Of a stretch of DNA of 64,000 nt, positions 19,031 to 48,142 are shown piece by piece. Both the position numbers and the translations under genes were made by a program. This DNA comes from Escherichia coli (GTDB lineage: Bacteria; Pseudomonadota; Gammaproteobacteria; Enterobacterales; Enterobacteriaceae), in assembly GCF_016026235.1 (NCBI RefSeq), contig NZ_CP065613.1; one strand, 5' to 3'. How positions within the stretch are numbered: the stretch's first letter is position 1; each line of letters begins with the position of its first letter. The notes under the pieces are model-generated. The model was given only the letters and a program-made list of their open reading frames with translations. It was not told where the DNA came from and made no database searches.

Positions 19031-19116
19031 GCCTGATGCGCTACGCTTATCATGCCTACCTGAATGAATTGGCACGAACTTGTAGGCAGGATAAGGCGGT
19101 CACGCCGCATCCGGCA
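19031..19116. repeat. BIME: two inverted REP elements flanking an approximately 20-bp spacer
   Basis: GCCTGATGCGCTACGCTTATCATGCCTAC and TGTAGGCAGGATAAGGCGGTCACGCCGCATCCGGCA, both REP-like, between ybdG and nfsB. Confidence 0.6.
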
Positions 19117-24967: not shown

Positions 24968-25067
24968 TGCCTGATGCGCTACGCTTATCAGGCCTACATG
25001 GTCCTGCAATATATTGAATTGGCAAGATTTTTGTAGGCCGGATAAGGCGTTCACGCCGCATCCGGCA
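24968..25067. repeat. BIME: two inverted REP elements, between fepA and entD
   Basis: TGCCTGATGCGCTACGCTTATCAGGCCTAC and TGTAGGCCGGATAAGGCGTTCACGCCGCATCCGGCA; same architecture as the BIME at 19031-19116. Confidence 0.6.
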
Positions 25068-38405: not shown

Positions 38406-39362
38406 TTAAAACAGCGCCTTAAGCCGTTCCAGCACTTGCATGGCGCTGTAGTAATCCAGACGGAACGTCTCGGTTCCCAGCGCATAAACCTGCTTGTTTT
38501 GTACTGCGGGCAGGTGCGCGAGCAGTGGATTGGCATAAATCGCATCGGCATCTTTCTGATCACCAGCGAACAGGAATAGCGATTCACCGTTTAACCCAGC
38601 AGCCAGATTTTCCCCACCAAGCTGAATGATGTCATGGCGTTTACCCTGGCTTTGGCTGGCATTTAACCCTGCGGGTAACTTCGCCAGCGTAAAGCCGAGT
38701 TGTTCCAGCATCTGCCCTTGTGCTGATTCCGGCGTCCAGAGATTGGCACTGTGTGCAGCGGCGGTATAGACAATGGCAGTGACCGGCTGCGGCGGTAATT
38801 TGATTTGCTCTTTCGCCGCGGCCAGTTGCTTATCAAACTGCGCAATCCGCTCTGCCGCTTGTTTCTCATGCCCGGTAATTTCGCCAAGTTGCGTTAACAG
38901 CGCCTGCCAGCTTTTGTCGTCGTAATTGATGATTAATGTCGGGGCGATGGTGGAAAGCTGATCATACAGTGCCAGCGCCGAATCGCCGCCGGTTGCGCTA
39001 ATTAAAATCAGATCCGGCATTTGCGCGGCAACGGCTTCGGCGCTCGGTTCGCCGATATAGAGCCGTTGCAGTTTGCGTTCTTTCGCCACCTTGCTCCACT
39101 GGCGTAAAAAGCCCTGGTCATCCGCGACGCGGTTATTCGGCGTGGTCGCGCCGCTGGCGATCACCGGAACATCAATCGCCAGCAGTGAGCCGGTCAGGGT
39201 GACGCTGGTGGAAACAATACGCTGCGGCTGGCTTTCCAGGGTATGAATGCCACGGCTGTCAGTAATCTGACGCGGCCAGTCGGCGGCCTGAACTGCGGCT
39301 ATTCCTGAAAGCAAAAGTCCTGTTAATAGAAGGGCGTTGCGGTAGAGCGGGGCGAGTCTCAC
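38406..39362 (-). CDS. fepB: Periplasmic ferric enterobactin-binding protein FepB
   Basis: 318-aa ORF with a signal peptide; convergent with entS. Confidence 0.9.
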
Positions 39363-39502
39363 AAATCAGCTTCCTGTTATTAATGAAGTTAATGCTTCTC
39401 ATTTTCATTGTAACCACAACCAGATGCAACCCCGAGTTGCAGATTGCGTTACCTCAAGAGTTGACATAGTGCGCGTTTGCTTTTAGGTTAGCGACCGAAA
39501 AT

Positions 39503-44559: not shown

Positions 44560-46665
44560 ATGAACAAATCAGGGAAATACCTCGTCTGGACAGTGCTCTC
44601 TGTAATGGGAGCATTTGCTCTGGGATACATTGCTTTAAATCGTGGGGAACAGATCAACGCGCTGTGGATTGTGGTGGCGTCGGTCTGTATCTATCTGATC
44701 GCTTACCGTTTTTATGGCCTGTATATCGCCAAAAATGTGCTGGCGGTTGACCCGACGCGTATGACGCCAGCGGTGCGCCATAACGACGGGCTGGACTATG
44801 TGCCGACGGACAAGAAAGTGCTGTTCGGTCACCATTTTGCGGCCATTGCCGGAGCAGGTCCGTTGGTTGGGCCGGTACTGGCGGCGCAAATGGGTTACCT
44901 GCCAGGGATGATCTGGCTACTCGCCGGGGTGGTTCTCGCCGGTGCGGTGCAGGATTTCATGGTGCTGTTTGTTTCTACGCGCCGTGACGGTCGTTCGCTG
45001 GGTGAGCTGGTCAAAGAAGAGATGGGGCCAACCGCCGGGGTGATCGCGCTGGTGGCCTGCTTTATGATCATGGTCATTATCCTTGCAGTACTGGCGATGA
45101 TCGTGGTGAAAGCCCTGACTCATAGCCCGTGGGGAACGTATACCGTTGCGTTCACCATTCCGCTGGCGCTGTTTATGGGGATCTACCTGCGCTATCTGCG
45201 TCCGGGGCGTATTGGTGAAGTGTCGGTCATCGGTCTGGTATTCCTGATTTTCGCCATTATCTCTGGCGGCTGGGTGGCAGAAAGTCCGACCTGGGCACCG
45301 TACTTTGACTTTACCGGCGTGCAGCTGACCTGGATGCTGGTGGGTTACGGTTTTGTGGCGGCGGTGCTGCCGGTGTGGTTGCTGCTGGCTCCGCGTGACT
45401 ACCTCTCTACCTTCCTGAAAATCGGGACGATCGTCGGTCTGGCGGTAGGCATTTTGATTATGCGCCCGACGCTGACCATGCCTGCACTAACTAAATTTGT
45501 TGATGGTACTGGCCCGGTATGGACCGGTAACCTGTTCCCGTTCCTGTTTATCACCATCGCCTGTGGCGCGGTGTCAGGCTTCCATGCGCTGATCTCTTCC
45601 GGCACCACGCCGAAGATGCTGGCGAACGAAGGGCAGGCGTGCTTTATCGGCTACGGTGGAATGTTAATGGAATCCTTCGTGGCGATTATGGCGCTGGTTT
45701 CCGCCTGTATCATCGATCCGGGCGTTTACTTTGCCATGAACAGCCCAATGGCGGTGCTGGCTCCGGCAGGGACGGCGGATGTGGTCGCTTCTGCCGCGCA
45801 GGTGGTGAGTAGCTGGGGCTTTAGCATTACACCAGATACGCTCAACCAGATTGCCAGCGAAGTGGGTGAACAGTCGATCATTTCCCGTGCGGGCGGTGCG
45901 CCGACGTTGGCGGTGGGGATGGCTTACATCCTGCACGGTGCGCTGGGTGGTATGATGGATGTAGCGTTCTGGTATCACTTCGCCATTCTGTTTGAAGCAT
46001 TGTTTATTCTGACGGCGGTGGATGCAGGTACGCGTGCTGCGCGCTTTATGTTGCAGGATCTGCTGGGCGTGGTTTCTCCGGGCCTGAAACGGACCGATTC
46101 ACTGCCTGCTAACCTGCTGGCAACGGCGCTGTGCGTGCTAGCGTGGGGCTACTTCCTGCATCAGGGTGTGGTCGATCCGCTGGGCGGTATTAACACTCTG
46201 TGGCCGCTGTTTGGTATTGCCAACCAGATGCTGGCAGGGATGGCGCTGATGCTCTGTGCCGTGGTGCTGTTCAAAATGAAACGTCAACGTTACGCCTGGG
46301 TGGCGCTGGTACCAACGGCCTGGCTGCTGATTTGTACCCTGACCGCAGGCTGGCAGAAAGCGTTTAGCCCGGATGCGAAAGTCGGCTTCCTGGCCATTGC
46401 TAATAAGTTCCAGGCAATGATCGACAGCGGTAATATTCCGTCGCAGTATACTGAGTCACAGCTGGCGCAACTGGTGTTCAACAACCGTCTGGATGCCGGG
46501 TTAACCATCTTCTTTATGGTGGTCGTGGTGGTTCTGGCACTGTTCTCGATTAAGACGGCACTGGCGGCATTGAAAGAGCCGAAGCCAACGGCGAAAGAAA
46601 CGCCGTATGAGCCGATGCCGGAAAATGTTGAGGAGATCGTAGCGCAGGCGAAAGGTGCGCACTAA
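44560..46665 (+). CDS. cstA: CstA-family transporter (carbon starvation protein A; peptide/pyruvate uptake)
   Basis: 701-aa polytopic membrane ORF. Confidence 0.9.
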   Translation: MNKSGKYLVWTVLSVMGAFALGYIALNRGEQINALWIVVASVCIYLIAYRFYGLYIAKNVLAVDPTRMTPAVRHNDGLDYVPTDKKVLFGHHFAAIAGAGPLVGPVLAAQMGYLPGMIWLLAGVVLAGAVQDFMVLFVSTRRDGRSLGELVKEEMGPTAGVIALVACFMIMVIILAVLAMIVVKALTHSPWGTYTVAFTIPLALFMGIYLRYLRPGRIGEVSVIGLVFLIFAIISGGWVAESPTWAPYFDFTGVQLTWMLVGYGFVAAVLPVWLLLAPRDYLSTFLKIGTIVGLAVGILIMRPTLTMPALTKFVDGTGPVWTGNLFPFLFITIACGAVSGFHALISSGTTPKMLANEGQACFIGYGGMLMESFVAIMALVSACIIDPGVYFAMNSPMAVLAPAGTADVVASAAQVVSSWGFSITPDTLNQIASEVGEQSIISRAGGAPTLAVGMAYILHGALGGMMDVAFWYHFAILFEALFILTAVDAGTRAARFMLQDLLGVVSPGLKRTDSLPANLLATALCVLAWGYFLHQGVVDPLGGINTLWPLFGIANQMLAGMALMLCAVVLFKMKRQRYAWVALVPTAWLLICTLTAGWQKAFSPDAKVGFLAIANKFQAMIDSGNIPSQYTESQLAQLVFNNRLDAGLTIFFMVVVVVLALFSIKTALAALKEPKPTAKETPYEPMPENVEEIVAQAKGAH

Positions 46666-46778
46666 AGTCAGAGTGAGGGGGGATGTTGGCGAATGTTGGC
46701 ATAGTGCCGAGGGTTCCCCCTCACCCTAACCCTCTCCCCGATGGGGCGAGGGGACTGACCGAGCGCGTTGATAGCATT

Positions 46779-46814
46779 TGTAGGCCGGATAAAGCGTTCA
46801 CGCCGCATCCGGCA
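46779..46814. repeat. REP element between cstA and ybdD
   Basis: TGTAGGCCGGATAAAGCGTTCACGCCGCATCCGGCA; a GC-rich imperfect palindrome lies just upstream at 46716-46754. Confidence 0.55.
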
Positions 46815-46846
46815 CTCATTCAGCAACATGGTTAGCGGAGGCCAAG

Positions 46847-47044
46847 ATGTTTGATTCACTGGCAAAAGCCGGAAAATATTTAGGTCAGGCGGCGAAGCTG
46901 ATGATTGGTATGCCTGATTACGACAACTATGTCGAACATATGCGGGTTAACCATCCCGATCAAACGCCGATGACCTACGAAGAGTTTTTCCGTGAGCGGC
47001 AGGACGCGCGCTACGGTGGAAAAGGCGGCGCGCGCTGCTGCTAA
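46847..47044 (+). CDS. ybdD: Small protein YbdD (YjiX family; partner of CstA-type transporters)
   Basis: 65-aa [35 protein letters not shown]... immediately downstream of cstA. Confidence 0.75.
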
Positions 47045-47053
47045 ATTTGCACG

Positions 47054-48142
47054 TCAGGCTTTAAACGATTCCACTTTTTCGAACGCTGCACGCAACGTAT
47101 CTGGTGTCAGCGTGACTGGCAGGTAATGAATGGACTCCACCGGGCGCAAGGTGTGGGCAATCACTTTGTCGATCTCCGCCTGATTATTGATATCCACTTC
47201 CAGCTCCGCCAGCGTAGTCGGCAGATGAAAACGCTGATACGCTCCAGTTAATTGCGCCAGAACATCATTCTGACCCAGCAAGGCGCTTTGCACCAGAATT
47301 CCGTAGGCGACTTTGGTGCCGTGGAGAAACTTCTCGGTTTGTGGCAGGACAGTCAGACCGTTATGTACGGCATGGGCCGCCGCTACACGCGTAAAACGAT
47401 CGCCCAGACCACCGACCATTCCACCTCCGGCGATAATCGCATCCACCACATCGCAAAATGATTGCGTTAACTGTTGATTTTGCTGATCGCTCAGCGCCTG
47501 TTCGCTACTGTTTAACAAGACGTCGCGAATGGCCTGCGCATTATTGATTCCCAGCCGCACGGTTAGCGGCAACGTTTCTGGTTGCGGAGCCAGCACCACC
47601 GCTTCATACCATTTCGCCAGCGTGTCACCGATCCCCGCCAGCAGATATTGTTGCGGCGCATTGAGGATAATCTCTGGTTCCACCAGCACCATAAAATTGG
47701 CGTCGTCGAAAATCTCATAATGCAGCGCCTGTCCGGCATCGTTATACCAGACGGAGAGCGGTGTCCAGGCGGCGCAGGTGGCGGCGATCGTTGGAGCGGC
47801 AACAAATGGCAGACCGAGACGGCGGGCGAGGGCTTTCGCGGTGTCGAGTAGTGCGCCGCCGCCGACGCCAATCACCACGCTGCGATCGTCACCGGACTCA
47901 GCCGCCAGTTGCTGTACATCGCTTTCGCTGCAATGACCACGAAACAAAATATGCTTTGCCCCTGGAAGTCCAAACGCTGGCGGAAGTTTGGTTTGCGCCG
48001 CAGCAATGGCGCGTTCGCCGTAGATCCACACCGCGCGAGAAAGTTGTTCATCAGTGAAAAAATCGTGCAGGTGATTGAAACTTCCTGGATGTGAAAAGTA
48101 GTTAGCCGGGCCGACGACCACGCGGATAGGATTGTGAGGCAT
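47054..48142 (-). CDS. ybdH: Iron-containing alcohol dehydrogenase-family protein YbdH (hydroxycarboxylate dehydrogenase)
   Basis: 362-aa ORF with a glycerol-dehydrogenase-like fold. Confidence 0.85.
   Translation of the reverse strand: MPHNPIRVVVGPANYFSHPGSFNHLHDFFTDEQLSRAVWIYGERAIAAAQTKLPPAFGLPGAKHILFRGHCSESDVQQLAAESGDDRSVVIGVGGGALLDTAKALARRLGLPFVAAPTIAATCAAWTPLSVWYNDAGQALHYEIFDDANFMVLVEPEIILNAPQQYLLAGIGDTLAKWYEAVVLAPQPETLPLTVRLGINNAQAIRDVLLNSSEQALSDQQNQQLTQSFCDVVDAIIAGGGMVGGLGDRFTRVAAAHAVHNGLTVLPQTEKFLHGTKVAYGILVQSALLGQNDVLAQLTGAYQRFHLPTTLAELEVDINNQAEIDKVIAHTLRPVESIHYLPVTLTPDTLRAAFEKVESFKA

Follow-up and report, generated by a model that had tools for sequence, protein, structure and literature searches.

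Does the structured DNA between cstA and ybdD of Escherichia coli form a control element dedicated to these two genes? In a preliminary description of the window (that is, the whole 64,000-nt stretch of E. coli DNA that was analysed), a GC-rich imperfect palindrome followed by a canonical REP had been noticed between the transporter gene and its small partner gene, at a place where differential mRNA stability or translational coupling would be set. We found that both elements are already known, and that the structured DNA of this junction is ordinary, not a dedicated control element, because it is made of known scattered repeats that are absent from many natural strains. Catalogues of BoxC and REP, the two repeats in question, go back to the 1980s-1990s, and a 2016 paper (PMC5100583) already tabulated the BoxC that K-12 has at this junction.

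Layout of the cstA-ybdD spacer

The genes of the region, with their strands, are as follows:

44560-46665, + strand: cstA, pyruvate/proton symporter, a 701-aa ORF annotated as cstA in matching E. coli records
46847-47044, + strand: ybdD, 65-aa protein of the YbdD/YjiX family, from the ORF list; WP_000460431.1 in the five genomes fetched
47054-48142, - strand: hcxA, neighbouring gene, convergent to ybdD

Positions 46666 to 46846 correspond exactly to the 181-nt spacer running from the cstA stop to the ybdD start, in a region that is 99.7% identical to that of strain FDAARGOS_943. The spacer contains the GC-rich element and the canonical REP of the preliminary description, and its features can be listed as follows:

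46667-46730, + strand: hairpin-1, in which the 5' arm GTCAGAGTGAGGGGG (46667-46681) pairs with the 3' arm CCCCCTCACCCTAAC (46716-46730)
46682-46701, + strand: 10-nt tandem duplication GATGTTGGCG / AATGTTGGCA, located within the hairpin-1 loop
46716-46770, - strand: BoxC (also named PIT element, TM_ECO type A 'mm' or HPG1), from an exact HPG1 21-mer and an alignment with eight K-12 copies
46780-46813, + strand: a single REP, presumably a palindromic unit of Y type, with GTAG ahead of the imperfect palindrome GCCGGATAAAGCGTTCACGCCGCATCCGGC
46837-46841, + strand: Shine-Dalgarno sequence of ybdD, GGAGG, 5 nt before the ATG

Folding of the intergenic repeat had been proposed as a check. The complete spacer RNA has a folding energy of -76.5 kcal/mol (z = -2.63), none of 200 shuffled sequences folds equally well, and three separate folding modules are predicted. 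The spacer is best explained as a stack of three independent stem-loop modules, namely a hairpin common to Escherichia, an intact BoxC, and a REP of presumed Y type. A 50-aa ATG ORF at 46683-46835 (+ strand) was considered as a gene and rejected: made of repeat sequence and disrupted in other alleles (it is destroyed in 29% of genomes), it is almost certainly non-coding.

Identity of the GC-rich palindrome

The GC-rich string quoted in the preliminary description, CCCCCTCACCCTAACCCTCTCCCCGATGGGGCGAGGGGAC, is present at 46716-46755 and does consist of inverted repeats: CCCCTCACCC and GGGCGAGGGG show 90% complementarity, and the nearer pair CCCTCTCCCC-GAT-GGGGCGAGGG has a dG of -15.6. However, calling it an imperfect palindrome was incomplete, as this missed a three-block element, BoxC, which has two C blocks as competing partners for a single G block and is dispersed over the genome. 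The palindrome is not a local feature: it is a known dispersed repeat.

This identification rests on several lines of evidence. The repeat family is built of a C block, a 3-4-nt loop, a G block, a second loop (TTA in type A, CCG in type B) and a second G block. The minus strand of the window element follows this order, reading gcgctcggtcaGTCCCCTCGCCCC-ATC-GGGGAGAGGG-TTA-GGGTGAGGGGG, also written GTCCCCTCGCCCC-ATC-GGGGAGAGGG-TTA-GGGTGAGGGGG. The 36-nt triplex/G4 core lies at 46717-46752; its minus strand, from 46752 to 46717, is CCCTCGCCCC-ATC-GGGGAGAGGG-TTA-GGGTGAGGGG, which matches the 'A mm' entries in Table 1 of PMC4666352. The 21-mer GGGAGAGGGTTAGGGTGAGGG, also on the minus strand, is the exact HPG1 motif (PMC5100583). 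The 22-mer and the G4 pattern each had one match in the window, against 0.00 to 0.01 expected.

Dispersion was assessed with a 51-nt query, which found 91,413 places in 5,425 of the 5,426 complete E. coli genomes, with a median of 18 and a maximum of 34 places per genome. The window copy is intergenic, lying past the cstA stop and ahead of the ybdD start, and among the best 12 matches listed, none had an annotated feature beneath it. When the window copy was aligned with eight K-12 copies, the whole core and the flanking tail turned out to be shared. Next to the C block, the tail gcgctcggtcaG is similar to the tails found in the pstB, adk, zntA, fimH and yjdP copies (family pattern GAGCGC.CGG.C). 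Since core and tail are common to the K-12 copies, the BoxC unit should span about 46716-46770, in keeping with a shared unit of about 56 bp; how far it reaches outward is uncertain, its 3' end on the plus strand being placed at about 46767-46772. Similarity over the tail and about 14 nt hints at orthology between the E. coli BoxC and the left BoxC of Pseudocitrobacter, although the family consensus may itself reach that far.

The BoxC repeat of E. coli was reportedly described by Bachellier et al., and the PIT element is said to go back to Hoyne et al. 2000. Holder et al. 2015 (PMC4666352) state that their TM_ECO element is the one 'earlier described as BoxC', which Hoyne and Maher found anew as the PIT element. 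Petrillo et al. (PMC2267715) give BoxC a length of 56 bp and 32 reported copies in E. coli, while 23 TM_ECO copies are counted in PMC4666352, and the literature ranges from 22 to 32. The K-12 copy at the junction under study is HPG1 no. 19 in Table 1 of Kaplan et al. 2016 (PMC5100583), with the entries 'cstA >>> 51', '632058', '-' and '108 >>> ybdD'. It differs from the window copy, a perfect consensus, by a C-to-T change in the outer block, and this change probably accounts for its absence from Holder's Table 1, which lists 23 TM_ECO.

The NC_000913.3 record, inspected at 631700-632500 and at eight other BoxC sites, shows no repeat features. The K-12 annotation could therefore not confirm the identity of BoxC, which was established by the literature and by our own alignment. 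Both repeats of the spacer are thus invisible to users who rely on the K-12 annotation.

Overall, the element shares with BoxC/PIT/TM_ECO/HPG1 the core CCCTCGCCCC-nnn-GGGGAGAGGG-TTA-GGGTGAGGGG, the flanking tail, the intergenic location and the multi-copy nature. It differs from them in that the window copy is single and not part of an inverted A+B pair, and in the overlap and pairing of its outer G block with the arm of an older hairpin resident at this locus. We consider the identity of BoxC, like that of the REP described below, to be essentially certain.

The REP unit

REPs, or palindromic units, are reportedly known from Stern et al. 1984 and from Gilson, Bachellier and Hofnung. The claim of a canonical REP after the palindrome was upheld. 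The unit at 46780-46813 has one mismatch to the pattern used, with GTAG and then an imperfect palindrome of about 30 nt whose arms, separated by a 2-nt gap, are 79% complementary (dG -17.4). Its assignment to the Y type is our assumption, based on the Y-type consensus. The REP pattern had three matches in the 64-kb window where none was expected; the two others, of the same type and on the + strand, are at 19086-19115 (two mismatches) and 25037-25066 (no mismatch). No match to the opposite-orientation REP pattern was found in the window. A BIME comprises at least two palindromic units in alternating orientation, with linker motifs; the spacer REP has no second unit beside it and is therefore not one.

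A search of Rfam returned no family at the gathering threshold. The best score, 32.3 bits (gathering score 59.5), was that of naRNA4, a REP325 component to whose first hairpin the REP aligns. The other two, mir-423 (26.3; threshold 71) and Antizyme_FSE (20.0; threshold 40), were set aside as sub-threshold chance matches to GC-rich hairpins. The spacer REP thus resembles known Y-type REPs by its GTAG and palindrome, its extragenic location, its multi-copy nature and its stable stem-loop; unlike them, it is lone, and the K-12 record shows no repeat annotation at this place. As it lies 114 nt past the cstA stop, it is beyond the 15-nt range proposed for REPs that stall terminating ribosomes (PMC12306157).

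Hairpin-1 and its junction with BoxC

The first module, hairpin-1, has arms of 15 nt with 87% complementarity (dG -29.4). Its 3' arm overlaps the end of BoxC, and the first C block of BoxC pairs with the G-rich arm upstream. In an alignment of 10 Escherichia alleles, the 5' arm and its pairing were found to be common to other Escherichia species devoid of BoxC. The 3' arm has changed from CCCCTYACTCTCAG to CCCCCTCACCCTAAC, which is the BoxC end, in the E. coli alleles that bear BoxC. From this change, BoxC seems to have joined the resident structure through the likeness of its end to the hairpin-1 arm. The tandem duplication in the hairpin-1 loop is itself variable: strain GPEC606 has lost one of its copies, and the alleles that lack BoxC have neither.

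Natural variation among E. coli strains

An alignment of six E. coli alleles revealed three haplotypes, which were then counted by allele-specific searches among the 5,419 complete E. coli genomes having the locus:

Window/K-12 type, with BoxC and REP: about 3,860 genomes (4,230 minus 370)
Z30 type, with BoxC and no REP: 370 genomes
L002 type, with neither the BoxC hairpin nor REP, and with another hairpin, GCCCTCTTAATTCAGGAGGGC, followed by ATTTG: 1,189 genomes

The five genomes fetched, representing all three types, encode an identical YbdD protein (WP_000460431.1). We conclude that these two repeats are dispensable and polymorphic, and the specific regulatory role that had been suggested for them is unsupported. 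This conclusion concerns the repeats and not structure as such, because the repeat-free alleles keep other hairpins; the natural alleles do not show structure itself to be dispensable.

The L002-type allele amounts to 22% of genomes and was seen in E. coli WCHEC040047 (L002, 476-506), the same arrangement being present in a second locus (L003). Its hairpin GCCCTCTTAATTCAGGAGGGC, weak and terminator-like, is followed by ATTTGTATTA, and it is homologous to the spacer hairpin of Citrobacter and Salmonella. It stands where other Escherichia have a REP, a situation that could reflect either ancestral polymorphism or introgression.

A second presence/absence polymorphism of BoxC was encountered inside the same window. 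In the fepB-entC spacer (window 39360-39400), the strain studied here lacks an insertion of about 190 nt found in K-12 and displays a clean empty site. By comparison with NC_000913.3 (624400-624950), the K-12 insertion holds an inverted BoxC pair, TM_ECO nos. 7 and 8. TM/BoxC loci are reported to be hyper-variable among strains (PMC4666352), and the fepB-entC case fits this report.

The spacer in other Enterobacteriaceae

To place the spacer in a wider context, YbdD loci were fetched from 80 species representatives, of which 77 gave a delimited spacer. A hairpin of dG -9 or lower was present in 74 of the 77 species, its end lying at a median distance of 19 nt upstream of the ybdD ATG, and in 70 of the 77 the spacer folded with z < -2 relative to shuffled sequences. 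The observation that structured elements lie between the transporter gene and its small partner gene thus extends well beyond E. coli. The signal for conservation of structure is only moderate, since 5 of 12 other same-strand spacers of the window, taken as controls, also had z < -2, and since the 77 species are not independent samples. A T-rich tail followed only 9 of the 74 hairpins. In most relatives the spacer is 48-63 nt long, with about 19 nt from hairpin to ATG.

The occupant of the spacer varies among species, and may be a plain hairpin, a REP-like unit or BoxC. Escherichia albertii, Escherichia whittamii and two further lineages have hairpin-1 and REP without BoxC. In Citrobacter and Salmonella arizonae the spacer measures 56-63 nt and contains a single hairpin, GCCCTCTCC..GGAGAGGGC followed by TTTG, which is clearly homologous to the L002-type hairpin of E. 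coli. BoxC motifs were found in the same spacer in 16 of the 77 species, mostly as inverted pairs of type A and type B, the genera concerned being Enterobacter, Lelliottia, Leclercia, Pseudocitrobacter, Phytobacter, Pluralibacter and Cedecea. These motifs are located at about 1360-1500 of loci L017, L020, L034, L040, L046, L059, L063, L066, L067, L073 and others. Some other relatives carry REP/PU-like units.

In most Enterobacteriaceae, an older hairpin precedes ybdD by about 20 nt. The best explanation of these patterns is that BoxC and REP came to occupy the place of this older, single GC-rich hairpin, and partly replaced it. In Citrobacter, Salmonella and Kosakonia, the plain hairpins formed by CCCTCTCC and GGAGAGGG resemble BoxC cores. 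More speculatively, given this resemblance, BoxC may spread by converting resident terminator-like hairpins, or decay into them, and not by transposition.

A few ybdD loci came from assemblies whose label does not fit: a 465-nt contig assigned to Streptomyces sp. DH24 (L011, coverage 0.73), and MAGs labelled Bacillota or Proteobacteria (L037, L051). Enterobacterial ybdD in assemblies of unrelated taxa most likely results from contamination or mis-binning.

Possible roles of the repeats

Two ways of acting on ybdD translation were considered. Classical translational coupling, which had been envisaged at the outset, is unlikely given the 181-nt gap and the GGAGG that ybdD possesses 5 nt before its own ATG. 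Repeat-dependent masking of the ybdD ribosome site was rejected, as predicted accessibility varies little between alleles: the Shine-Dalgarno sequence has a predicted unpaired probability of 0.30-0.50 in all six, with or without repeats, and the ybdD start region is predicted to pair with early ybdD codons regardless of repeats.

We slightly favour another role, by analogy with REPs elsewhere, in which the repeats would act as generic stem-loops on a read-through transcript, as an exonuclease barrier or a mild attenuator, and not as a dedicated switch. In most relatives, the 48-63-nt spacer is too short for a promoter to fit behind the hairpin, which suggests that cstA and ybdD would be read as one transcript. 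The repeats would fold on this transcript as stable RNA hairpins lacking a U-tract, which would block 3'-to-5' exonucleases and so stabilise the cstA segment; they would also mildly lower or uncouple ybdD expression. They would in this way take over the job of the older hairpin, neither repeat being required.

The REP between malE and malF is the textbook case of an intercistronic stem-loop that sets differential mRNA stability. Like it, the cstA-ybdD REP is predicted to be a stable hairpin without U-tract, between co-oriented genes of one functional system, at a place where a barrier to 3' exonucleases would be expected. One difference is that REP-less alleles of cstA-ybdD are common in nature. 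REP hairpins in RNA are barriers to exonucleolytic decay and can attenuate transcription (PMC12306157), and an effect of the spacer REP on cstA-ybdD mRNA stability would be plausible on these grounds. Moreover, constitutive pyruvate uptake requires both CstA and YbdD (PMC5847655), so that their co-expression makes sense.

Three observations weigh against the read-through stem-loops. First, RegulonDB, as tabulated in PMC5100583, gives cstA (1/1) and ybdD (1/1) as separate one-gene units; a literature search for transcript maps or cstA 3'-end data at the cstA-ybdD junction found none. Second, in the one functional study of these elements (Hoyne and Maher 2002, as cited in PMC4666352), PIT/BoxC reportedly had neither promoter nor terminator activity and no effect on RNA polymerase. 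Third, structured spacers are not rare, as seen in the 5 of 12 window controls.

The main rival is that BoxC and REP are neutral passengers, selfish or slippage-prone, that are tolerated at this place with no measurable effect on cstA or ybdD expression. We regard this as a serious alternative, though a clearly less probable one. It agrees with the coexistence of three common E. coli alleles, with the identical YbdD of the five genomes fetched, with the absence from this strain of the fepB-entC BoxC pair of K-12 and the reported hyper-variability of TM/BoxC loci (PMC4666352), with predicted Shine-Dalgarno accessibility that is unchanged between alleles, and with the lack of promoter and terminator activity reported for PIT elements in the functional study. 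However, the stable hairpin kept in 74 of 77 species hints at selection for structure, and in other operons REP hairpins are known to act as barriers to decay (PMC12306157).

A bolder view of the same conservation is that the spacer is a slot where 'any stable hairpin will do', which would set the ratio of transporter to partner and which would have been filled repeatedly by BoxC and REP/PU; this seems to us rather unlikely.

Alternatively, structure might be adopted by the DNA: the G-rich strand of BoxC, which is the minus strand and hence the template for cstA and ybdD, would form a triplex or G-quadruplex that stalls RNA or DNA polymerase, and would thereby serve as a switch or be a source of instability. 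In vitro, an oligonucleotide of the consensus forms a very stable triplex (PMC4666352) or an ion-dependent G4/hairpin (PMC5100583), and the locus is polymorphic by small indels centred on BoxC, as this model predicts. We nevertheless hold such non-B DNA to be quite improbable. In vivo DMS footprinting and CD/NMR of double-stranded DNA showed no sign of a triplex, and PIT elements reportedly had no effect in vivo in the Hoyne and Maher study. Furthermore, hairpin-1 offers the third G block a Watson-Crick partner that would compete with a triplex or G4. At the RNA level, the mRNA carries the C-rich strand of BoxC, and hence no RNA G4 or purine triplex should arise from it, only Watson-Crick hairpins.

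Finally, the hairpins might mark a boundary between transcription units by terminating cstA, with ybdD expressed from its own promoter, as the separate units of the RegulonDB-derived table, the weak terminator-like GCCCTCTTAATTCAGGAGGGC and ATTTGTATTA of the L002-type allele and the clear T-runs after hairpins in a few genera such as Atlantibacter would have it, but this is the least probable reading of all, since neither a sigma-70-like promoter nor a terminator-like site was found in 46300-47200, none of the three hairpins is followed by a T-rich tail and the window allele has no GC-rich hairpin followed by a T run, T-rich tails are confined to 9 of 74 hairpins across species, the short spacers of most relatives have no promoter room, and CstA and YbdD act together.

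Significance

Recognising BoxC and REP at this junction keeps a dispersed repeat from passing as a locus-specific regulator. The three common alleles of E. coli are natural 'deletion mutants' for the effect of BoxC and REP on the CstA:YbdD ratio. The part of the initial idea that finds comparative support, and the only one, is that in Enterobacteriaceae a hairpin is almost always kept before ybdD.
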